Virus record (IMG/VR): IMGVR_UViG_3300033171_000037
DNA from: a virus
DNA length: 16,047 nucleotides
Reading direction: 5' to 3' (one strand)
Shown here piece after piece: positions 2,853 to 16,047 of the stretch. The notes under the pieces were generated by a model that ran no database searches, was not told where the DNA came from, and worked only from the letters and a program-made list of their open reading frames with translations. Position 1 is the stretch's first letter. Each line of letters starts with the position of its first letter. Made by a program: the position numbers and the translations under genes.

Positions 2853-2913
2853 GTTAAACAATTCGTTTAACCTGGCATAGATATTTAACCGATCGTTTAA
2901 CAATTAGTTAAAC
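2853..2913. promoter_or_regulatory. Promoter and operator of the RHH gene: two inverted heptad pairs around a TATA-like box
   Basis: The first pair is GTTAAAC-aattc-GTTTAAC (2853-2871). ATATTTAA follows at 2881-2888. The second pair is GTTTAAC-aatta-GTTAAAC (2895-2913), which abuts ATG 2914. There is no SD. Confidence 0.6.
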
Positions 2914-3387
2914 ATGCCATTCTTAGGGGTCAAGATCTCAGAGGAGCTGGAGACCCTGATCGACGAAGAGGTTAAACGCTCCGATAAGTCCAAAAGCGAC
3001 ATCGTGAGAGATGCGTTAAACCAATATTTTAACGTCGCGATCCCTGAAGGTACAGGCCTAATAGTATTAGATAAAAAAGAGCTTATAAATCTGATTGATA
3101 GCAGACTAGGAGTTAAACCAGAAGTTAAACGCGAGGTTAAACTGATCCCAGAAGTTAAACCAAAAATTAAACAGGACGTTAAACCGGTTAAACAAGATGT
3201 TAAACCAGAGGTTAAACCCACAATTCAGAGGTTATCCGAGGACTCAGCAACACAAGAGAAAATCAAAGAGCTGTGGAGGAGTGGGGAGCGGAACCGACAG
3301 GCAATAGCTCAGCAGGTAGGATACAAGAATCGAACAGTCCAGCAGTACATCAAAGACTGCCTGGAAAGCGGCGAGCTGGAGAAATAA
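2914..3387 (+). CDS. RHH (CopG/Arc/MetJ-like) - repeat linker - HTH DNA-binding protein
   Basis: The N-terminus MPFLGVKISEELETLIDEEVKRSDKSKSDIVRDALNQYF has the strand-helix-helix pattern of RHH domains. The middle is VKPEVKREVKLIPEVKPKIKQDVKPVKQDVKPEVKP repeats. The C-terminus IKELWRSGERNRQAIAQQVGYKNRTVQQYI is HTH-like. Confidence 0.75.
   Translation: MPFLGVKISEELETLIDEEVKRSDKSKSDIVRDALNQYFNVAIPEGTGLIVLDKKELINLIDSRLGVKPEVKREVKLIPEVKPKIKQDVKPVKQDVKPEVKPTIQRLSEDSATQEKIKELWRSGERNRQAIAQQVGYKNRTVQQYIKDCLESGELEK
3112..3217 (+). repeat. Array of GTTAAAC heptads (8 exact copies and 1 near copy) inside the RHH gene
   Basis: Exact copies start at 3112, 3124, 3136, 3154, 3178, 3187, 3199 and 3211. A near copy ATTAAAC starts at 3166. 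Spacing is mostly 12 bp. Confidence 0.9.
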
Positions 3388-3420
3388 GTCGAGGAGCGAC
3401 GGAGATAGAACGGCTGGATT

Positions 3421-4221
3421 TTAGCATATCAGCTTGCTCTGTAATCCACTTTTTTGTGAAGATTTCCGGACTAAGTTATAAAGTTTAATGTTTTTTATAG
3501 AGATTTCTTCGAAATTGGGATTATCCTCGAATTCGATTAAATATATTTTATTTGCATCGATTGGCTTTACAGCGATTGGACAACAGGTAATTCCCGGGAA
3601 ATATTGCCTTGCATATTTAACCAAATTTGATATTTGAACCCATCCAATCATATCACGTGCGTCCGGACCCTTAGCTTCAATTGGTATAATATACTCGTTT
3701 CCATCGGTATCCACACCCACATAGAGATCATCTACCTCTACTTGACCTTCTTCCCTAATTGTGGTCCTAATATGCGACTGGAGATGAAAGCAAGTTATTC
3801 CGGTAAAAACATCAATAAGTCTATTATATCGTATACATGATAAAAGAGCTTGCTCATCGTTTGTAGAATATTTCTCTACAATCTCAGGTAAAGAATTTAG
3901 AATATCGATAGATGTTAGTCCCTCTTGTATTGTTAGATGCGGGGAGCGGCTTATCTTGCAAAACGCAAATTTTCCCTTCCCTTTAGGTGCAATAATCCAA
4001 TTGCCTTTATCAAGTATGGTCTTTGGCAGCGGTCGTCTCGATCGGTAGGTATAAATTATATCCGGAATATTTCTAATAGTTATGTTGAGATCGTTCGCCA
4101 CTTTAGCGACGTCATCTTTATCAAAATTAATAATATCTTCGCCCCCACAATCTGCTAATTTAGCCTGAAACAATTCTATAAGAATTTTATCATATTTTGT
4201 TTCGTTGTTTAAAGTAGTCAT
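3421..4221 (-). CDS. Putative Type II restriction endonuclease (PD-(D/E)XK-like)
   Basis: 266 aa. It lies 11 nt downstream of the methyltransferase gene on the same strand, and its SD GAGGT overlaps the methyltransferase stop. The candidate catalytic signature is VEVDDLYVGVDTDGNEYIIPIEAKG (D...E-x-K). It has the same low GC as the methyltransferase gene. Confidence 0.5.
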   Translation of the reverse strand: MTTLNNETKYDKILIELFQAKLADCGGEDIINFDKDDVAKVANDLNITIRNIPDIIYTYRSRRPLPKTILDKGNWIIAPKGKGKFAFCKISRSPHLTIQEGLTSIDILNSLPEIVEKYSTNDEQALLSCIRYNRLIDVFTGITCFHLQSHIRTTIREEGQVEVDDLYVGVDTDGNEYIIPIEAKGPDARDMIGWVQISNLVKYARQYFPGITCCPIAVKPIDANKIYLIEFEDNPNFEEISIKNIKLYNLVRKSSQKSGLQSKLIC

Positions 4222-4232
4222 TTAGGTCAACC

Positions 4233-5573
4233 TCAATCATTTTTAAGTATCAACACATTTTCATCTATGTTCATTTTTGTTGCTGTAGCTATTCTCGTGC
4301 GCCAAAGTTCGATACCCATGACATTATACCCTAGTGATCCAGCAATGTCCGCAATTAATTCGGCGGTTGGTATATAAACTCTGAAAAAAGACATTTGGTC
4401 ACCAAGGACATAAGCTAACTTAGCATCCTCTGATAAATATGGTTTTAGGCTCTTTAAATGGAGATACATTCCTCCAAAATAATGACGGACGATTTTGTGA
4501 TACATCTTTTCGAATCCTGAAGTTTTATTCAGATATATTCTTTTCTTCTCGATTTCATCTGCTATTTCTGTGATTTTACTATATTCTGCAATACAGTTAC
4601 CATCAACGTCTTTCGCAAAAATATTTCTAGAGTTGCTCCGTAGAAGATCCTCTTTAACGTTCCTTAAATCGCGCTTATTATTGATAAAATCAAGTAAAAT
4701 ACTCTCTAATCTGGTACTTCTCGTATAATCCTTTTCATTTGGGTATGGTGGGGAAGTTATAACGCAATTAATCTGTCCCATCAGTTCCTCTGGCAGACAT
4801 TTATCGATTTTACGTGCGTCCCCTTTGATAATTTTTGAGTTATCAATGCCACTGAATCTCGATACATCTTCGATCATTTGTTGAGTATTAGCTACGTAAT
4901 AATCCAATGCATTAATGTCTTCTTTCGGTTTAGTCCGATAAATCTCCGGGCCAAAAGCTATATTTCCTGCTCGATTTATAATTAAATTTGCTAATGAAAG
5001 TTTAAAAAATGATCGTATTTCGTCATCCTCAATCGAATCAATAACTTTTTTTAGTATTAAAACTTTATTTAACGGCACATCACTTATAAACCCCTTTGGT
5101 AGTATCTTTTGTTTTTCGCTTTTGAGTGTAGGTATAGAATCGACAACAAATAAGTTTAAATTCGTTTTTGGCTCGATTATCGAACGATTATCAGCAATAT
5201 AAAGTTTTTTATAAGACAACAGTGAAGAATTATAAATATAACCTAAATAATTGTGAAGATCCTCTACGTCCAGCATCATATTCGTCTTAACTTTTGCGGC
5301 AAAATATGCAACCGGATTTGCCTCAATTCCATAATTTGGTATATTACTTTTTAAGCATTCTACATTTGTTGTTCCGGTTCCACAAAAAGGATCCAAAACG
5401 ATAGCGTTATGTGAGATATTGAATTTATTTAAATACTGTGTGACTAGATGAGGTGGATATCCCAATACGAATTGATACCACCCGTGTATAGGTAAATCTG
5501 ACATACATATTTGGTTTTTCCCTCCGTTAGATCTTCTGCCAAGGTTACTTTTTTTAACCCCTATGCTTGCCAC
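4233..5573 (-). CDS. DNA N4/N6 amino-methyltransferase (motif order X-I...IV, alpha-like)
   Basis: Motif I is LDPFCGTGTT (aa 60-69). Motif IV is TSPPY (aa 273-277, nt 4743-4754). HGWYQFVLGYPPHLV is motif-X-like. The GTG start at 5573 is preceded by GAGGTG. An alternative start is ATG 5504. Confidence 0.85.
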   Translation of the reverse strand: MASIGVKKSNLGRRSNGGKNQICMSDLPIHGWYQFVLGYPPHLVTQYLNKFNISHNAIVLDPFCGTGTTNVECLKSNIPNYGIEANPVAYFAAKVKTNMMLDVEDLHNYLGYIYNSSLLSYKKLYIADNRSIIEPKTNLNLFVVDSIPTLKSEKQKILPKGFISDVPLNKVLILKKVIDSIEDDEIRSFFKLSLANLIINRAGNIAFGPEIYRTKPKEDINALDYYVANTQQMIEDVSRFSGIDNSKIIKGDARKIDKCLPEELMGQINCVITSPPYPNEKDYTRSTRLESILLDFINNKRDLRNVKEDLLRSNSRNIFAKDVDGNCIAEYSKITEIADEIEKKRIYLNKTSGFEKMYHKIVRHYFGGMYLHLKSLKPYLSEDAKLAYVLGDQMSFFRVYIPTAELIADIAGSLGYNVMGIELWRTRIATATKMNIDENVLILKND

Positions 5574-5806
5574 TTATACGCACCTCATTATACTCCCCAT
5601 TAGATGTACTAAACGTTGACCCCTCAACTTGACCGCAGGGTTTGATATAACAAGAACGTATTATACATTAGAGGGGCACACGCAGGCAAACACAATAAAC
5701 ATCACATCCCTATGTGATGTTGTAACTTGTCAAGCCCATTTGCTTGCTATGCCCCATGCACTTAATAACGAATACCGATTAATTCAGGAAGAAAACTGGA
5801 AATAAA

Positions 5807-5822
5807 CCGAGACATGTCTCGG
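5807..5822. repeat. 16-bp perfect palindrome CCGAGACATGTCTCGG, copy 1
   Basis: Read directly from the sequence. An identical copy lies at 5991-6006. The upstream flanks share TTCAG...AACTGG. Confidence 0.9.
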
Positions 5823-5855
5823 TCTCGGCTTGGCAAAACCAAGACAAGATAGCGA

Positions 5856-5901
5856 TTTTCTCTTTTGTTTATATATATTTTTCGTATATATATCTATATC
5901 T
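5856..5901. other. AT-rich TATA-repeat tract between the twin palindromes
   Basis: The sequence is ttttctcttttgtttatatatatttttcgtatatatatctatatct, and it includes TTTATATA at 5868-5875. Confidence 0.7.
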
Positions 5902-5990
5902 CCGACTAGATAATGTTACATTTTATCAGATGATCGTCACATCTGATGATCTGATTTTTAGCTGCTAGTGATTCCTTCAGAGAACTGGGA

Positions 5991-6006
5991 CCGAGACATG
6001 TCTCGG
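5991..6006. repeat. 16-bp perfect palindrome CCGAGACATGTCTCGG, copy 2
   Basis: Identical to 5807-5822. It lies 10 nt downstream of the stop of the minus-strand gene at 6016-6546. Confidence 0.9.
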
Positions 6007-6015
6007 TTTAAGTTC

Positions 6016-6546
6016 CTAAACTAATCTGATGAGATGACGTTGTTTATGGCGAGGATCTTTGATGACCTGGAAACGATGATCGTCGTCCAATAGCGGTTCT
6101 AATCGATTGATATGCCGTTTTGTCACTCCAAGAAGGCGAGCGGCGTCTTTCGTTGTGGTCTGACGCATCCTAAGCCGTTTCATCTCTGAGAAAAGGCGGT
6201 CCAGGTGGTCGGATGCGGTCTTTTGACTGAGAGCGGGGGCCGGGGCTTCGAGCTTGCTGATCCTCTGGCGATCGTATGCTCTTTCGAGGGCGGCCTCTTC
6301 CCGGAAGGTGTCCAGCTCCACCCTGAGCTTGTGGATCTCTTCTTCCTGGCGCTGGATGTCTCTCTGTCGTTGCTGGGAGATGCACTGGAGCCGGTGAATC
6401 TCATCCTCCTGCTGCTGGAGGACCTCGGCTAAAAGATGCTTAATTCTCGGGACGTCATCGAAAAGCTTATCCGCCAGAAGGGCCATGTTATCCTTGGTCG
6501 AGGACCGGCCTCTGGCATCCGCTAGGGGTTGGTCTACTAATTCCAT
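6016..6546 (-). CDS. Coiled-coil protein with a C-terminal HTH (excisionase/AlpA/MerR-like); candidate regulator
   Basis: 176 aa, with SD GAGGTGAT 6 nt upstream of the ATG. The HTH-like segment is TTKDAARLLGVTKRHINRL. It carries an internal repeat QEDEIHRLQ / QEEEIHKLR. It is transcribed divergently from 6702-7097. Confidence 0.6.
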   Translation of the reverse strand: MELVDQPLADARGRSSTKDNMALLADKLFDDVPRIKHLLAEVLQQQEDEIHRLQCISQQRQRDIQRQEEEIHKLRVELDTFREEAALERAYDRQRISKLEAPAPALSQKTASDHLDRLFSEMKRLRMRQTTTKDAARLLGVTKRHINRLEPLLDDDHRFQVIKDPRHKQRHLIRLV

Positions 6547-6648
6547 TCTACTATCACCTCATTCTATTGTGGTTACATGCGGCTACTGCTTTGTGATTCT
6601 ATCTAAATAATCTTTTTGCCGAGTTCCAAATCCCACAAGCCAGATTAG

Positions 6649-6692
6649 TTATGTGACCCTAGCCACCAAATATATATGGTATGGTCACATAA
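6649..6692. promoter_or_regulatory. Operator: 10-bp inverted repeat TTATGTGACC-N24-GGTCACATAA enclosing a TATA-like box
   Basis: The half-sites are 6649-6658 and 6683-6692. AAATATATAT lies at 6668-6677. ATG 6702 has no SD. Confidence 0.6.
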
Positions 6693-6701
6693 CTATTATA
6701 C

Positions 6702-7097
6702 ATGGCTACGCCGAAGATCATTTACGAAACCACAAGCGGGGAGGAGATCAAGGCCTTGCGAGAGGAGGCCCGGAAGCTGCGAGACGAGGCAGCGAAGCTC
6801 CGGCAGTTCCGGGGAATGGAACCGGCGGCGAGGGAGAGGGAGGCGGAGGCGGCCAGGCTGGAGGGCGAGGCCGAGGACCTGTGGAGCGCGGCGCGGTTGG
6901 AGGCGTTGACGGTCTACCTCGGCCCGGTGGAGAAGATCACCGCGAAGGGGCCGAAGACGTATGAGTACTATTTCGCGTCCTGGAAGATGGGGGATAAGGT
7001 CGTCAATAAGTACATCGGCTCTCCTCGGAAGATGACCCAAAAGGCGGCCACAGAGAAGGCCCGCCAGCTGAAGGCGGAGGCGCTGGCAGTTCTGTGA
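6702..7097 (+). CDS. Hypothetical coiled-coil protein
   Basis: 131 aa with a charged helical N-terminal half. The C-terminal segment GPKTYEYYFASWKMGDKVVNKYIGS is of unknown function. The start looks leaderless. Confidence 0.6.
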   Translation: MATPKIIYETTSGEEIKALREEARKLRDEAAKLRQFRGMEPAAREREAEAARLEGEAEDLWSAARLEALTVYLGPVEKITAKGPKTYEYYFASWKMGDKVVNKYIGSPRKMTQKAATEKARQLKAEALAVL

Positions 7098-7143
7098 TAT
7101 CTTCCAGATTTGGGCGTGAAATATAACAGAACTATCATCAAGG

Positions 7144-7186
7144 AGCTTCGGAAGTGAAGCTTCTCCAACTCTTCTCTCTTTTTTCT
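7144..7186 (+). terminator. Weak hairpin followed by a T-rich run
   Basis: AGCTTC (7144-7149) pairs with GAAGCT (7156-7161), followed by cttctctcttttttct. Confidence 0.3.
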
Positions 7187-7454
7187 AATCGTCCAAAGTG
7201 GGCTTGTTTACAACTCCTGCCCCTGCGTTCCACAGACTATGGAATCTGCCCCCTTCTGTCGCGCAAAGGTATGGGTAAATCGATCAAGTTTGGGCTTATC
7301 CGAGTATCTGCCCTCGGAGATGCGGCGACTGATAGCGTTTTTGTGGACGAAATTTTCAAGTGGACTTATCGATCGGTTATAACAAGTTTATGGCTAACAT
7401 TACATCAACAGACGCCTCAAACATCAAGTATATTTTTATCCTTACTTCATATTT

Positions 7455-7498
7455 CTTATGTAACCAATTGGTCGGTATAGGTGGGCAAGTTACATAAG
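7455..7498. promoter_or_regulatory. Second copy of the operator architecture: CTTATGTAAC-N24-GTTACATAAG
   Basis: The half-sites are 7455-7464 and 7489-7498. The TTATGTRAC core and the 24-nt spacer are the same as at 6649-6692. Confidence 0.6.
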
Positions 7499-7532
7499 AA
7501 AAACGACCCATGGCGGGCGAAGGAGGGTAACT

Positions 7533-7562
7533 TTTAAATAACTTACTCACCCACTTACTCAC
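7533..7562 (+). promoter_or_regulatory. TATA box plus tandem ACTTACTCAC repeats upstream of the zinc-ribbon gene
   Basis: TTTAAATA lies at 7533-7540. ACTTACTCAC occurs at 7541-7550 and 7553-7562. ATG 7563 follows directly, with no SD. Confidence 0.5.
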
Positions 7563-7907
7563 ATGCCTGGAGCGAAATTCGCCCCAATATTGGTCGAATG
7601 CAAAAACTGCGGCCACGAATGGATGTATGGCGGGCAGTCGATGTACTACTGCACATGTCCTGTATGCCACTACAAAAACCTCGTCCCTCTATTTGGTGAG
7701 AGGTGGCATGTTGCAATGGCGCGGTTGGCACAACTGATGAGTGAAAGCGGTATATCTCCAGCTGATGAGTATAAGCACGCCAATTATGTAATATCATTCA
7801 TAAGACGGCTACTAAAAGAGGACGGACTCGATGATTGGCGCGCGGGGCTTGAGACTGACTTGGAGGAGATGAAAAGACGAAGAGCCGAGGCAAAGGCCAT
7901 GATGTAG
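7563..7907 (+). CDS. Zinc-ribbon protein
   Basis: 114 aa. CKNCGH...(18 aa)...CPVCH is a four-Cys ribbon pattern near the N-terminus. Confidence 0.65.
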   Translation: MPGAKFAPILVECKNCGHEWMYGGQSMYYCTCPVCHYKNLVPLFGERWHVAMARLAQLMSESGISPADEYKHANYVISFIRRLLKEDGLDDWRAGLETDLEEMKRRRAEAKAMM

Positions 7908-8191: not shown

Positions 8192-8277
8192 AGGTGGAAC
8201 CGCCACCCATTGACGATTACTTTCGCCTCGCACGTGGCGAAAAAATAAGAGATATCCTGCGAGAGGGGAGAAGATGA
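8188..8277 (+). CDS. Possible leader micro-ORF 2 (29 aa, MKVEPPPIDDYFRLARGEKIRDILREGRR)
   Basis: It has ATGA overlaps at both ends. Its start overlaps the stop of micro-ORF 1, and its stop TGA 8275-8277 overlaps the primase ATG 8274. Confidence 0.3.
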   Translation: MKVEPPPIDDYFRLARGEKIRDILREGRR

Positions 8278-10859
8278 CCCTCCCCCCGAAGCCTACGGCC
8301 CTTGAAGTCTGGCATCGGAACGCACCCGCTGCCCTGAAGGAGGTCGAAGGCTGGATTCTGTGGAAATATACCCCCGTCAATGGAAAATGGACCAAACCCC
8401 CATTTAACGAGGACGGGAAAAAGATCGACGCCCACGACCCCACAGAATGGATGACCTTTTCCCAGGCAGTCCAGGCCTACCAGCGGGGCGGATTCGACGG
8501 GATCGGGCTCTCTCTCAATGCTATGGAGGCTCTCGCCGGCGTCGACCTCGACCATTGCGTCAAGGGAGGGGAGATCGAGCCGTGGGCGCTGAAGATCGTC
8601 GAGGAGCTGGGAAGCTACGTTGAGATCTCACCGAGCGGTGAGGGGCTCCGAATACTGGGATATGGAAAGCTTCGCCGAGAGGGGCGCAAAAAGGGCAATG
8701 TGGAGGTCTACGATGGGGGCAGGTATCTCACCTTCACCGGCCACAGGCTGGATAGCGCAACCTCTGATATAGAGGACTTCGACGAGGCACTCAATCGAGT
8801 ACACCACCGGATATGGGCCGAGAACCCGAAGATCCCCATCCTCCAAAGCAATGGGGGCGAGGTGGGTGGTGATCTGGCCGAGAGATTCGCAGCCCTCTGC
8901 GATGATGACCCGAAATTTAAGGATAGATACTATTCTCCCGCGAGTGTCGGTGATAGATCTGATCACGAGTTCCACCTCTGCGCCCGGCTATGGGAAGAGG
9001 GGTTCTCCGAGTCTGAGATCAGATCTTTGATGGATTCGTCCCCCCAGGAGAAATGGAGAGAGAGGGGCGCCGACGACTACAGGGACACCACGATCAGAAG
9101 AGCTATTCAATCAGCAGCGGCGCCGAAGGGGAACAGAGGGGCCGAGGGGGCGAGACAGGTCTCCGAGGAGGAGCTCGCCACCATGAAGATGGACAACGGC
9201 CCCAAATTCAAGCTTAATCTACCTGGGAACCACTACTTAACCCGTTATATCGCATACGGGCGGGACGTCTCCGATGCTTATCCCGACTACTGGCTCGCCG
9301 GGGGGCTCTATCAACTGGCCGTGATCGCCGATAAGAAGATATGGGTCAAGCTGAGGCAGGGGACGATCTATCCTAATCTCTACATCTTCGTGGCGGGTAA
9401 ATCCGGACTCAGCCGAAAGACTACAATCATCGACGTCTCCGAGTCTCTCCTCAACGACCACAGGCCGGGGACGGCTGTGAACGCGGTCCCGACGGAGTTC
9501 TCGCCGGAGGCCTTCATCGAGCACCTCGACGCAAGCCCTCATGCCCCATGGGTCAGAGATGAAGCTGCCGGGGTTCTAAAGGCCATGAAACGGGACTACA
9601 TGAGGGGCTTCAAAGATTCGCTGATGCAGTTGTACGATTGCAGACCCATTCATCGAAAGCTTCGGACAAACCGGCGGTCGAAGAGTAAAACCGACTTTGT
9701 AGTGGACGACCCCTATCTCAACGTCCTGTGGGCGACGACGGACTCATCATTAGCGGCCAACACCGAGATCAACGACACCCTAAGCGGCTTCATGGCGAGG
9801 TTCATCTATCACTTTCCGAGGAGGCCTAAAGAGCGATGGCTCCCCCTCGAAGAGGGTGAGGCGATGAACTCCGAGCTGGAGCTCGTCGTCAGGGGCCAAC
9901 TGACGGCTATGGTGAACAAGGTCGCCGAGATGCCGGGGCGCCAACTCAAATTCAGCCCAGAGGCGGCCCAGTACTGGAGCGAATGGCAACTACAGAGAGC
10001 GAGGGAGATCGAGAAGCGGGACGACGCCAACGAGATGCAGATACACAGCCGACTGGTTCCGTTGGTGGCGAAACTGGCGATGCTCTTCGAGCTCGGATCT
10101 TCGGATTTTGATCCGGGATGGCCTCGGCCCATAGGGGTGGGATATGTCGTCGAGGCGTGCAGGCTTGTGGACGAATATTATCAGCCCATGGCCATGGCCG
10201 TCTATGACATGGTAGGCCGGGACCTGGAGAAGAACGTGATCGACCGGATCATAGCGTTTTTGAAGAGGCATGGTGGCGTTTCTACCAAGCGGAAAATATC
10301 CAGGCATGTGAAGATCAAGGCGAGGGAGCTCCAGGAGTATCTCGATACCATGGTCGGGGACGGAACCATCGAGTACTGTGAGATCCAGAACCCCAGGGGC
10401 GAAGCTACGATCAAGGTCGTCCTTAGTGTCGATACTGTATATACAGTCAATAAAGTCATATCTGTCAATACTGTCACTCGTAACACTGAGGATCGAGAGG
10501 ATAATCGTAACACTAAATCTGAAGATAAATTATCTTCTTGTGGGGAAGGTGTTACAGAGGAAGGCCGCAAACTAGGTGACAGTGAATACCCCTGTGACAG
10601 TGGTGACAGTTCCGACAGATTGACAGTATGCCCACCCCCGCAGCCCCCAAAGCCAAAAGCGGCAACAGCTACCGAAAAGACCGAGCCGCCGAGGATATTC
10701 AACCTGAGCATCCCCTACTATCTGGACCTGGGAGGAGGTCAACTCCCCACCGTGAAAGCCCTGATGAAAGATCAGAACTGGCCACAGGATAAGGCAGTAA
10801 TGGCTATCGGGATGCTGGAGCAACAGGGATATTCGAGAGGGTTTAATTGTCCTGATTAG
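8274..10859 (+). CDS. Replication protein: AEP prim-pol domain, PriCT-like helical region, DUF3987/helicase-like NTPase, wHTH and a repeat-rich C-terminal tail
   Basis: 861 aa. The AEP motifs are GVDLDHC (D91/D93), YVEISPSGEGLRILG and NVEVYDGGRYLTFTG. EFHLCARLWEEGFSESEIRSLM is PriCT-like. FVAGKSGLSRKTT and PWVRDEAAG are NTPase-like. ISRHVKIKARELQEYLDTMVGDGTI is wHTH-like. Confidence 0.85.
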   Translation: MTLPPKPTALEVWHRNAPAALKEVEGWILWKYTPVNGKWTKPPFNEDGKKIDAHDPTEWMTFSQAVQAYQRGGFDGIGLSLNAMEALAGVDLDHCVKGGEIEPWALKIVEELGSYVEISPSGEGLRILGYGKLRREGRKKGNVEVYDGGRYLTFTGHRLDSATSDIEDFDEALNRVHHRIWAENPKIPILQSNGGEVGGDLAERFAALCDDDPKFKDRYYSPASVGDRSDHEFHLCARLWEEGFSESEIRSLMDSSPQEKWRERGADDYRDTTIRRAIQSAAAPKGNRGAEGARQVSEEELATMKMDNGPKFKLNLPGNHYLTRYIAYGRDVSDAYPDYWLAGGLYQLAVIADKKIWVKLRQGTIYPNLYIFVAGKSGLSRKTTIIDVSESLLNDHRPGTAVNAVPTEFSPEAFIEHLDASPHAPWVRDEAAGVLKAMKRDYMRGFKDSLMQLYDCRPIHRKLRTNRRSKSKTDFVVDDPYLNVLWATTDSSLAANTEINDTLSGFMARFIYHFPRRPKERWLPLEEGEAMNSELELVVRGQLTAMVNKVAEMPGRQLKFSPEAAQYWSEWQLQRAREIEKRDDANEMQIHSRLVPLVAKLAMLFELGSSDFDPGWPRPIGVGYVVEACRLVDEYYQPMAMAVYDMVGRDLEKNVIDRIIAFLKRHGGVSTKRKISRHVKIKARELQEYLDTMVGDGTIEYCEIQNPRGEATIKVVLSVDTVYTVNKVISVNTVTRNTEDREDNRNTKSEDKLSSCGEGVTEEGRKLGDSEYPCDSGDSSDRLTVCPPPQPPKPKAATATEKTEPPRIFNLSIPYYLDLGGGQLPTVKALMKDQNWPQDKAVMAIGMLEQQGYSRGFNCPD
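10434..10627. repeat. Intragenic block of iterons and palindromes (candidate origin)
   Basis: Elements in order: palindrome ACTGTATATACAGT (10434-10447); ACTGTCAC (10470-10477); TCGTAACACT twice (10478-10487 and 10505-10514); palindrome GAAGATAA-a-TTATCTTC (10521-10537). GTGACAGT occurs three times (10576, 10594, 10603), with degenerate copies at 10613 and 10620. Confidence 0.6.
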
Positions 10860-14887: not shown

Positions 14888-15316
14888 ATGTCCGGCGATG
14901 ATGGTGAAAAGAAATTTACTCAGGCTGATGTGGATCGGATAGTCCAGGACCGGCTCGCCCGTGAGAAGACGAAATACGAAGAGCTGGAGGCCGAACGGGA
15001 CGCCTTGAAAGACAAGGTGGCCGAGTACGAAAAGACCTCCCTGGACTCTCTGAAGACGAAGATCGCCACCGACCTGAAACTCCCTCCGGCCCTGGCCAGC
15101 AGACTGGCGGGGACGACCGAGGCGGAGCTGAAGGCAGACGGCGAGAAGCTGCTGAAAGAGATCGGACCCAAAGAGCCTGTGGGCGGCGGTGGCAATCCAG
15201 CGGGCGAGGTAAAGAAACCTCTCACTCGCGAAGCTGTGAAGGCCATGAAGCCAGACGAGATCATCGCAAACATGGACCAGATCAAGAGCCAGATGAAAGA
15301 AGGCTCATTGAGGTAA
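14888..15316 (+). CDS. Scaffolding protein (complete copy)
   Basis: I prefer ATG 14888 (GGAG 9 nt upstream) to the track's GTG 14882. The protein is 142 aa, charged and helical, and lies upstream of the capsid gene. Confidence 0.65.
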   Translation: MSGDDGEKKFTQADVDRIVQDRLAREKTKYEELEAERDALKDKVAEYEKTSLDSLKTKIATDLKLPPALASRLAGTTEAELKADGEKLLKEIGPKEPVGGGGNPAGEVKKPLTREAVKAMKPDEIIANMDQIKSQMKEGSLR

Positions 15317-16047
15317 AATCGCATGGCATTAACGAATTTCATAGGGGAGGTTTGGGCCGCCCAAATCCTCCAGAGTCTCCAGAAGTCTATGGTCTACGGT
15401 CAGGCCGGAGTAGCAAACAGAGACTACGAAGGTACCATCCGGGGCAAAGGCGACACGGTGAGGATCACCGCCCACGGTCCGATAACGATCGATAACTACG
15501 ACAAGACCACGGGGATAGGCGACCCTGAAGACCTCGACGACGCTTCAACCACGCTGGAAATAACTCAGGCGAAGTACTTCAACTTCAGAATCGACGACAT
15601 AGACAAGGCGCAGATGAACGTTAAGCTGATGGAGAGCGCCACAAGAGACGCGGCCTACCAGCTTGCAGACGTGGCCGATCAGTACATAGTCGCCCAGATG
15701 GTAGCGGGTGCCGGGAACGCTGTGGGGGCGGATGGATCTGACAAGATCTTTGACGGAACCACCGACCTTGTAACCGAGGAGCTTCTGTCAGTCAAACAGC
15801 TTCTCGATGAAGACAACGTACCCTCTGAAGGCCGGTTTGTGGTGTTTCCGCCTTGGGTTATCAAGTGGCTTCTCCAGGAAGACGCAATCGTTAACCCCAC
15901 GTGGTCCGGTGTGGAGAAGGCCATGTTGAACGGCGAGATCGCGAAGCTTTTCGGCTTCAGTATCCTTCAGTCCAACAACGTACCGAACACGGCGGGCGAC
16001 CACTACAAGGTCGTTGCTGGAGTGGCGAGGGCGACGACTTTCGCCGA
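14920..16047. repeat. Terminal redundancy, copy 2 (identical to 1-1128)
   Basis: Same evidence as copy 1. This is consistent with wrap-around of a circular 14,919-bp molecule. Confidence 0.95.
15323..16047 (+). CDS. Major capsid protein, 3'-truncated duplicate of 404-1128
   Basis: Identical to the first copy, and cut by the window end. Confidence 0.8.
   Translation, partial: MALTNFIGEVWAAQILQSLQKSMVYGQAGVANRDYEGTIRGKGDTVRITAHGPITIDNYDKTTGIGDPEDLDDASTTLEITQAKYFNFRIDDIDKAQMNVKLMESATRDAAYQLADVADQYIVAQMVAGAGNAVGADGSDKIFDGTTDLVTEELLSVKQLLDEDNVPSEGRFVVFPPWVIKWLLQEDAIVNPTWSGVEKAMLNGEIAKLFGFSILQSNNVPNTAGDHYKVVAGVARATTFA

Follow-up and report, generated by a model that had tools for sequence, protein, structure and literature searches.

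The window analysed here is the whole 16,047-nt stretch of the IMG/VR virus record IMGVR_UViG_3300033171_000037. It holds a 14,919-bp element that is circular or terminally redundant (positions 1–1128 are identical to 14920–16047), a virus- or plasmid-like replicon of Methanotrichaceae archaea. One of its genes encodes a 157-aa protein in which a ribbon-helix-helix (RHH) domain is joined by a linker to a helix-turn-helix (HTH) domain, and copies of the heptad GTTAAAC lie both upstream of and within the coding sequence (CDS) of this gene. The comparisons presented below indicate that these heptads are very likely binding sites of the protein itself, which are kept by selection at the DNA level and generate a peptide repeat where they are translated. 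The features of the locus are as follows.

2841–2871: distal operator, with 12-bp-phased GTTATAC (2841, near copy), GTTAAAC (2853) and GTTTAAC (2865).
2876–2889, plus strand: TATA-like element CATAGATATTTAAC, with the box ATATTTAA at 2881–2888, about 26–33 bp before the ATG.
2895–2913: proximal operator, GTTTAAC (2895) and GTTAAAC (2907), reaching from the TATA box to the start codon and abutting the ATG.
2914–3387, plus strand: RHH-linker-HTH gene, 157 aa.
2971–3033: intra-RHH sites, GTTAAAC at 2971 (codons 20–22, GTT AAA CGC) and GTTAAAC-N5-TTTTAAC at 3015/3027 (codons 34–40, in a different frame).
3058–3111, plus strand: AT-rich block, codons 49–66, coding for helix 3 and lying directly 5′ of the array.
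3112–3217, plus strand: linker array, eight exact GTTAAAC (3112, 3124, 3136, 3154, 3178, 3187, 3199 and 3211) and ATTAAAC (3166).
3199–3220: recombination joint, where the module of operator, RHH domain and array meets the C-terminal domain.
3220–3384, plus strand: C-terminal HTH-A domain, residues 103–157, which occurs with different N-terminal domains (alignment).

An exhaustive count on both strands of the window found 14 exact copies of GTTAAAC, all of them within 365 bp (2853–3217), against an expectation of 1.09 copies and a maximum of 4 in 200 dinucleotide shuffles of the window. Their positions, with those of the near copies, are given here.

GTTAAAC on the plus strand, 12 copies: 2853, 2907, 2971, 3015, 3112, 3124, 3136, 3154, 3178, 3187, 3199 and 3211.
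GTTTAAC, the minus-strand match, two copies: 2865 and 2895.
Near copies: 2883, 3027 and 3166, plus GTTATAC at 2841.

An earlier reading of this DNA, made by a model from the letters alone (hereafter the sequence-only reading), had listed 12 forward and two reverse copies and no exact copy elsewhere; the count reproduced all of these positions and returned zero copies outside 2853–3217. The near copies that it gave at 2883, 3027 and 3166 are real, but it had missed the phased near copy at 2841. Its statements that four exact copies are non-coding and that the copy at 3015 is read out of frame as L-N also held (GCG TTA AAC, A-L-N).

Relative to the ATG, the upstream sites lie at −73 (near), −61, −49, −31 (near), −19 and −7, in steps of 12 bp with one of 18 bp. 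In the coding part, three sites fall in RHH-coding DNA and nine in the DNA for a predicted disordered linker, where the spacing is mostly 12 bp and the heptads are translated as the V-K or I-K of (E/D)VK(P/Q/R/L) repeats. The heptad is itself palindromic (GTT-W-AAC), and its ‘forward’ and ‘inverted’ forms differ in the centre base only. Given this symmetry, and because relatives flip the centre base at fixed positions such as −7, the upstream sites are better read as a 12-bp-phased row of symmetric sites than as the two inverted pairs of opposite polarity previously proposed. The exact copies of the coding array are all ‘forward’ because the other orientation in the V-K frame (GTT TAA C) gives a TAA stop codon.

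The gene was compared with 24 distinct sequences carrying the same RHH domain (groups A and B), taken from viral, metagenomic and genome collections. In the operators of these relatives, each heptad keeps its position, whereas its centre base may flip and the 5-bp spacers are free to vary; the −7 site, for example, is GTTAAAC in some and GTTTAAC in others. The 3′ half of CATAGATATTTAAC is the near-heptad ATTTAAC (2883–2889), that is, the −31 site, and CATA[GA]ATATTTAAC was essentially unchanged and in the same place in all 24 upstream regions. No Shine-Dalgarno sequence was found 5′ of the ATG of the RHH gene. This absence and the position of the TATA-like element fit a leaderless archaeal mRNA, the putative promoter role being assigned from general archaeal promoter geometry. 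Six phased sites bracket the TATA-like box just before the leaderless ATG. Sites that overlap the TATA box and extend as far as the start codon would probably allow the protein to exclude TATA-binding protein, transcription factor B and RNA polymerase, and thus to repress its own gene.

The 157-aa protein consists of the RHH domain (residues 1–48), an extra helix (54–65), a disordered linker (about 65–104) and a three-helix HTH domain (111–152). Residues 5–38 matched PF01402 (RHH_1) with 28.3 bits, against a cut-off of 20.5, and the homologs also carry PF01402; a weak HTH match was found with Pfam at residues 120–153. An AlphaFold model built on 38 homologs placed a strand at about residues 3–6 and helices at 10–23 and 27–39 with moderate confidence (predicted local distance difference test, pLDDT, 68–76), followed by the extra helix at 54–65 and a C-terminal bundle with pLDDT values of 82–87. 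The values fell to 31–35 at residues 65–104, which is exactly the part encoded by the array. For the HTH-A domain, a Foldseek search returned only generic HTH DNA-binding domains with non-significant E-values, and a word-indexed protein search with this domain alone returned one fragment. Matches of the C-terminal domain to protein kinase C in a PDB sequence search were low-complexity and were rejected as spurious.

GTTAAAC was the top 7-mer common to the 130 bp upstream and the CDS in all 24 relatives, and the density of sites was 19.7/kb in the gene with its 130 bp upstream, compared with 0.024/kb in the rest of the loci. The codons of the linker were strongly restricted within the heptads. 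Valine of the V-K pairs was encoded by GTT in 165 of 173 cases, the other eight being GTA, a variant that is also tolerated in the operators, and lysine by AAA in 173 of 173. The base following V-K was C in 168 of 172 cases, though the next residue may be P, Q, R, L or H. Elsewhere in these linkers, codon choice was mixed (Lys, 33 AAA and 10 AAG; Glu, 76 GAA and 35 GAG). In the core genes of the window, GTT accounted for 15% of Val codons and AAA for 35% of Lys codons; in the RHH gene itself, GTT was used in all nine heptad Val codons and in none of the six others. Back-translation with the codon usage of the element gave a mean of 0.43 sites and a maximum of 4 in 20,000 simulations, and with the usage of the AT-rich restriction-modification (RM) genes a mean of 2.2 and a maximum of 7, against 10 observed.

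Within the RHH-coding DNA, the heptad codons were invariant in all 24 relatives, whereas the Q37 spacer codon and other Leu codons varied, and the three intra-RHH sites were still present in a homolog with 58% protein identity (L081). In addition, the linkers of several relatives contain inverted heptads in a shifted frame (xGT TTA ACg, read as S/G-L-T), which avoids the TAA codon. Such copies cannot be explained by a peptide-repeat model. The sequence-only reading had already doubted that duplication of a peptide repeat would be sufficient, and had proposed that a DNA-level model would fail if relatives kept the peptide but varied its codons freely; the codons are not free, and the codon counts, the back-translation and the shifted-frame copies all point in the same direction. 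Across these relatives, the comparisons show the V-K-P/E peptide repeat to be the translation of the site array and not its cause.

Exchanges of domains among relatives indicated which part of the protein the motif belongs to. RHH-A occurs with HTH-A or with a different, winged-HTH-like C-terminal domain (C-domain B), and GTTWAAC is kept in both combinations. RHH proteins of type C (group C), which share the same HTH-A domain, have instead the operator G[AC]TATAC G[AC]TATAC c GTATAGC TTATAGC, which overlaps a TATA-like element some 30 bp 5′ of the ATG. The DNA of their linkers contains three to five copies of G[AC]TATAC, translated as D/A-I-Q repeats in which Ile is always ATA and the final C of the motif is kept while the next residue is Q or H. 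Cross-counts separated the two groups almost completely, as follows.

GTTWAAC: group A, 3.5 upstream and 9.1 in the CDS; group C, 0 upstream and 0.2 in the CDS.
G[AC]TATAC: group A, 0 upstream and 0.2 in the CDS; group C, 3.3 upstream and 3.3 in the CDS.

Residual V-K heptads beside HTH-A in group C have decayed (GTTGAAC, GGTAAAC, GCTAAAC). The residues of the N-terminal strand also differ between the two RHH types in the alignment (FLGVKIS in RHH-A, QYNVRLP in RHH-C). The motif thus tracks the N-terminal domain independently of the C-terminal one, a comparative signature that marks the N-terminal domain as the likely binder. This agrees with the proposal of the sequence-only reading that the RHH domain recognises the heptads.

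A third class was found by scanning relatives of the capsid gene for dense 7-mer clusters, and it occupies the same genome position. Here, a Zn-ribbon/DUF6788-like N-terminal domain is joined via LTKDK, LPKT, LHKT or LTQD repeats to C-domain B. The motif of this class, CTTAC-NN-AAGAC(A), occurs in two to eight reverse copies 5′ of the TATA box, in one forward copy before the ATG and in 6–12 copies in the linker. In 15 distinct sequences, 57 upstream and 131 coding copies (188) were counted, with none elsewhere in 131.8 kb, and back-translation predicted about 0.1 copies. Within a single linker, this 13-mer is translated in two frames, CTT ACC AAA GAC A as L-T-K-D and c TTA CCA AAG ACA as L-P-K-T, and one reverse copy in a linker is read as S-Y-V-R. 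Three further RHH types gave weaker cases: CCCAAGGGC in L154/L159 (P = 0.0012), TTAAACC in L124 (P = 0.007) and AAGTAC in L138 and L010 (P = 5e-4 and 1e-4).

The limits of homology between loci outlined a recombining unit. The locus L017, with an RHH domain of type C, is 99.4% identical to window positions 3199–7084 and unrelated to the left of 3199, and in group B loci the homology to the window is limited to 2838–3217/3218, from the first to the last heptad. Judged from these breakpoints, the comparisons show that the operator, the RHH domain and the array move together in recombination and are joined to different C-terminal HTH domains, with the linker as the joint. The RHH gene can be regarded as a stand-alone unit, because the gene that follows it in most relatives (p131, described below) has its own promoter. 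No sites of the N-terminal domain were detected outside its own gene in any element. Such a lack of other targets is typical of centromere-binding proteins. The swapping of specificity modules between near-identical backbones suggests, from the loci compared, an incompatibility-type pressure.

The module is not restricted to capsid-bearing elements. In a 12,165-bp contig of Ca. Methanocrinis natronophilus strain Mx (L078), the gene of a 1062-aa Prim-Pol is followed, 1.1 kb downstream, by an RHH-A and C-domain B module and its array. Further genes on this contig code for a tyrosine integrase, an Hfq-like protein, a pentapeptide/ion-channel protein and DUF1699; no genes for capsid or terminase were found in its 12 kb. 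Its content implies that the module is common to capsid-bearing and integrative plasmid-like elements. Separately, three loci (L069–L071) carry a truncated gene remnant directly downstream of a p131 homolog (about 3990–4183 in L069), in which one GTTAAAC precedes an intact HTH-A frame; the RHH domain is missing, and there is no obvious start codon.

The favoured explanation of these observations begins with an N-terminal RHH dimer that would recognise the 7-bp palindrome GTTWAAC. The array might then act as a loading platform on which each genome copy is coated with some 15–18 RHH dimers, and about twice as many tethered C-terminal HTH domains would be displayed at one locus. Such an assembly could form a centromere-like complex for maintenance or anchoring, of the omega/ParR/SegB type, while autoregulation would keep the supply of protein in step with the number of sites. 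A centromere-like role is favoured by the site count, the lack of any other target, the exchange of specificity between near-identical backbones and a separate origin-like set of iterons (see below). The whole explanation, which combines self-site array, autorepression, portable module and centromere-like platform, appears to us evenly balanced between right and wrong; the centromere-like role of the array is proposed tentatively and with slightly less than even confidence. A version without a motor, in which the array would serve as a centromere or tether that rides on host DNA or the cell envelope or brings genome copies together in pairs, is possible though rather doubtful. This same doubtful reading would make the DNA-binding domain, its operator and the self-site array in the disordered-linker DNA a portable self-anchoring module.

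Several observations weigh against the favoured explanation. Neither ParA, ParM nor TubZ was found in Pfam and PHROGs scans of the open reading frames (ORFs) of the window, no partition NTPase was found among the neighbours across relatives or in L078, and no delta, ParA or ParM partner is encoded here, in which the system differs from omega, ParG and ParR. The sole constant neighbour of the RHH gene is p131 (DUF6788), which has a promoter of its own. The C-terminal domain has a generic HTH fold, for which no partner or target was found, and the binding of the heptads by the RHH domain is read from covariation. No motif shared between the upstream region and the CDS, and no array, was found in P0062/L079, L112, L121, L123 and L128; L079 comes from larger tailed viruses, and the other four have short, non-repetitive linkers. 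L081 has kept the operator and the three intra-RHH sites with only two linker sites, and together with the members that lack an array it implies that the array is dispensable for the protein as such. Finally, the integrase of L078 implies that an element need not be obligately episomal to carry the array. The sequence-only reading had suggested a centromere or copy-control site on the ground that the replicon has no integrase. That rationale is weakened by L078, which keeps the RHH-A module and its array alongside an integrase, and with no NTPase found and origin-like iterons lying elsewhere, the suggested role is not established.

The alternative that survives best is pure autoregulation, in which the intragenic sites would be auxiliary operators acting via looping, an elongation roadblock or repressor titration, with no part in segregation or tethering. 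The operator sites extend over the TATA box and directly up to the ATG, the gene stands alone with the next gene under its own promoter, and the array varies in length from 2 to 14 sites and is absent from some relatives, as this alternative would allow. Intragenic auxiliary operators are also well known, as in lac O2 and gal OI. However, 12–18 sites per gene, kept at synonymous positions and in at least three unrelated domain classes, are far more than autoregulation normally needs, and an N-terminal domain without a target beyond its own gene would provide no output through that domain. We therefore consider pure autoregulation unlikely as the full account.

A second alternative is that the array serves as an origin or in iteron-based copy control, with the protein as a lambda O-like initiator accessory or with P1 incA-like handcuffing or titration. 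The architecture matches that of lambda O and ori-lambda (PMC7466680, PMC6022878), and in many relatives the module lies 1–2 kb from a Prim-Pol or primase-helicase gene. The AT-rich block directly 5′ of the array in groups A and B might also suit an origin: its GC content is 0.28 and that of its third codon positions (GC3) 0.17, compared with about 0.6 in the flanking domains, and its rare AT-rich codons GTA, TTA and ATA are fixed in all 24 relatives. No equivalent block was found beside the group C array, which counts against an origin, and an AT-rich unwinding element was rejected as a shared conserved feature since it is present in groups A and B and not in group C. Moreover, the protein shows no similarity to known initiators and no Pfam or PHROGs replication match, and the type of C-terminal domain does not track that of the replicase. 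A lambda O-P-style covariation of C-terminal domain and replicase was accordingly discarded, as PrimPol-1087 co-occurs with both HTH-A and C-domain B.

A more origin-like set of iterons sits in the primase-helicase gene of the same element.

10430–10630: second array, within the primase-helicase gene (8274–10859); all five exact ACTGTCA copies of the window lie in 10470–10627.

One forward copy with near copies at 10443 and 10461 is opposed to four reverse copies (10577, 10595, 10604 and 10621), and these opposed clusters flank an AT-rich spacer of about 100 bp. The ACTGTCA DNA encodes a low-complexity linker (…SVDTVYTVNKVISVNTVT…GDSEYPCDSGDSSDRLTV…) before the C-terminal domain of the primase-helicase. 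Other 7-mers occupy the same place in relatives (GGTAACA in L092, TACAGAA in L145, TATGCCA in L127), and in L110 GGTCACA lies just downstream of the gene. From its layout, the ACTGTCA array is likely a replication origin inside the replicase gene, in the manner of lambda O. Its presence argues against the GTTWAAC array as the origin and leaves the centromere-like or autoregulatory roles; an origin or copy-control function of the GTTWAAC array thus appears improbable.

Other cis roles of a bound array, for instance as a packaging-recognition site for terminase or as a recombination hotspot for module exchange, are very improbable. The element does encode TerS-like, TerL and capsid proteins, and the recombination breakpoints coincide with the edge of the array. 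Against this, the module and its array also occur in L078, in whose 12-kb contig capsid and terminase genes were not found, the TerS-like HTH protein adjoins TerL, far from the array, and breakpoints at domain boundaries would be expected from selection on functional chimeras alone.

The weakest account, that (E/D)VKP is needed at the peptide level, that the identity of the DNA stems from recent slippage or duplication and that the likeness to the operator is coincidental, is scarcely credible: the copies do share one frame at spacings that are multiples of 3 and vary in number as slippage would allow, but the heptads are invariant, whereas the spacers between them differ at synonymous and non-synonymous sites alike, back-translation gave P < 1/20,000, four to six copies are non-coding and others out of frame or inverted in a shifted frame, the linkers of the other classes are chemically unrelated (AIQ; LTKD/LPKT) with each matching its own operator, the motif of the Zn-ribbon class is translated in two frames, and V-K heptads decay beside HTH-A where the RHH domain is of type C.

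The remaining features of the element surround this module.

2821–2852: CCCGCC-N9-GGGCGG, a GC-rich hairpin with a T-rich run after it, in the gap that separates the first heptads from the stop codon of the 218-aa gene upstream.
2904–3221, minus strand: 105-aa ORF with ‘GLTS’ repeats, in which the heptads are read backwards.
3388–6640 (approximately, including the 176-aa gene): RM cassette with a restriction endonuclease-like gene (3421–4221) and an N6/N4 methyltransferase gene (4233–5573), both on the minus strand; GC 32–39%.
5803–5824 and 5989–6010: perfect 22-nt inverted repeat TAAACCGAGACATGTCTCGGTC, with arms 164 nt apart.
6016–6546: 176-aa HTH/coiled-coil gene, part of the RM insertion.
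6650–6700: promoter of p131/DUF6788, with the TATA box ATATATAT flanked by a perfect 11-bp inverted repeat, AGTTATGTGAC … GTCACATAACT.
7098–7562: non-coding stretch of 460 bp upstream of Zn-finger and primase genes, long for so compact a genome.

The hairpin at 2821–2852 looks, from its sequence, like a terminator that would set the structural operon apart from the RHH promoter. The minus-strand 105-aa ORF is almost certainly an artefact of the repeat and was rejected as a gene, although gene callers could report it. The RM cassette and the 176-aa gene form an insertion between the RHH gene and p131 that is missing from most relatives and is 99.4% identical in L017, whose left arm differs completely. 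Each arm of the 5803/5989 repeat is itself palindromic (CCGAGACATGTCTCGG), and the repeat is intergenic, flanked by the methyltransferase and 176-aa genes. In most relatives, the gene after the RHH gene is a homolog of 6702–7097 (p131, DUF6788). The layout of its promoter is kept in all groups, whatever the type of RHH or C-terminal domain, and another regulator, perhaps p131 itself, probably uses the inverted repeat as its operator. CopG-like control of downstream replication genes by co-transcription was rejected, given that p131 has its own TATA box and a conserved inverted repeat. The stretch at 7098–7562 contains several inverted repeats (7447–7464/7489–7506 and 7088–7100/7121–7133), and two tandem copies of ACTTACTCAC lie directly 5′ of the ATG at 7563; as an origin candidate it has inverted repeats and no iterons. 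GC skew was discarded as a clue to the origin, as it tracks only gene orientation and the RM insertion.

Pfam and PHROGs scans identified head genes for a scaffold protein, an HK97-type major capsid protein (MCP), a head-tail adaptor, a TerS-like protein, TerL and portal, and the window also carries a primase/DUF3987-helicase and the low-GC RM cassette. No tail genes and no integrase were recognised among the window ORFs. The 14.9-kb element might be a very small virus, or the archaeal equivalent of capsid-forming satellites. Its relatives are abundant in anaerobic-digester metagenomes, with 110 MCP matches in IMG/VR. Host labels from metagenome-assembled genomes conflict (Synergistetes, Dehalococcoidia, Methanothrix) and were set aside; the host was assigned instead from the Ca. 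Methanocrinis culture contig and from long-contig p131 homologs labelled Methanothrix/Methanotrichaceae. Methanotrichaceae are globally important acetoclastic methanogens, and almost nothing is known of their viruses or plasmids.

RHH heptad arrays, iterons or parS sites inside the gene of their binder, and autoregulation are already known. A literature search of incomplete coverage, which does not prove absence, brought up no account of this family, nor of RHH proteins whose own CDS holds self-site arrays, and within the same coverage the general design, an interdomain linker encoded by the protein's own site array, was not found described. A linker sequence dictated by an array of DNA sites is an unusually clean natural case of overlapping codes, and in archaeal mobile elements this arrangement has arisen repeatedly, with at least three unrelated types of DNA-binding domain, each paired with a motif of its own. 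Where a DNA-binding protein of a mobile element contains low-complexity peptide repeats, these should therefore be compared with its operator before a protein-level meaning is assigned. If the self-anchoring reading were true, disordered linkers would offer free real estate for arrays of cis elements, and some peptide repeats would be by-products of DNA motifs. If the array were a centromere-like site without a cognate NTPase, it would indicate a new way of keeping archaeal episomes. The module also supplies matched pairs of protein and site with at least three specificities, which could serve as orthogonal DNA-anchoring parts.

Among known systems, lambda O with ori-lambda is closest in architecture. 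Its iterons lie mid-gene in DNA for a flexible linker and are bound by the protein's own N-terminal domain, an AT-rich block adjoins, and two more iterons add 13 aa in Stx phages; the N-terminal specificity goes with the iterons, and the C-terminal domain serves another partner (PMC7466680, PMC6022878). Here, too, the array lies within the gene of its likely binder, flanked by the codons of an N-terminal DNA-binding domain and those of a C-terminal domain. In contrast to lambda O, to which there is no relation in sequence or fold, the binder is an RHH or Zn-ribbon domain, 9–14 units of 7 bp at 12-bp spacing replace four to six iterons of 19 bp, and the sites also form the promoter operator. 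No homology to phage replication protein O and no helicase-loader linkage was found, the downstream gene being DUF6788.

The omega protein of pSM19035, with which the sequence-only reading had aptly compared the heptads, binds as one RHH dimer per 7-bp heptad in direct or inverted orientation. Its arrays of 7–10 copies overlap its own promoter and double as operator and parS, and the non-RHH part contacts the partner (PMC3074150). As in such partition systems, an RHH protein is found here together with a short-repeat array that overlaps its own promoter, and the operator sites of group C are contiguous like those of omega. However, omega heptads are contiguous and non-coding, whereas those of group A are 12 bp apart and mostly inside the CDS, and omega regulates other promoters, whereas no sites were found here beyond the protein's own gene. 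The extra domain is also different, being a C-terminal HTH on a long linker rather than the short N-terminal tail of omega, ParG and ParR.

Two further systems place binding sites within genes. SegB, an archaeal centromere-binding protein of the RHH type, recognises palindromes just 5′ of its own operon, and 83.7% of its chromosomal sites are intragenic (PMC12284271). Its 13-bp palindromes are scattered over the chromosome with no array in its own linker DNA, it works with an adjacent ParA-like SegA, and its likeness to the 157-aa protein is not one of demonstrated homology. For ParT/parS of the Streptomyces plasmid SCP2, the centromere site lies inside the CDS of its binder (PMC12260392). This site differs from the present array in being a single 18-bp inverted repeat for a ParB-like HTH protein with a ParA partner, and it involves neither an array nor a peptide repeat.

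Small RHH autorepressors, such as CopG and ORF56 of pRN1, are found on self-replicating archaeal or bacterial elements. Their genes are co-transcribed with that of the replicase and have promoter operators only, whereas the present gene stands alone and is followed by the RM insertion or p131, with the primase gene not adjacent and the replicase outside its transcription unit. In functional terms, the proposed tether would be comparable to EBNA1/LANA-type episome tethering and StbA-type positioning, here in Archaea.

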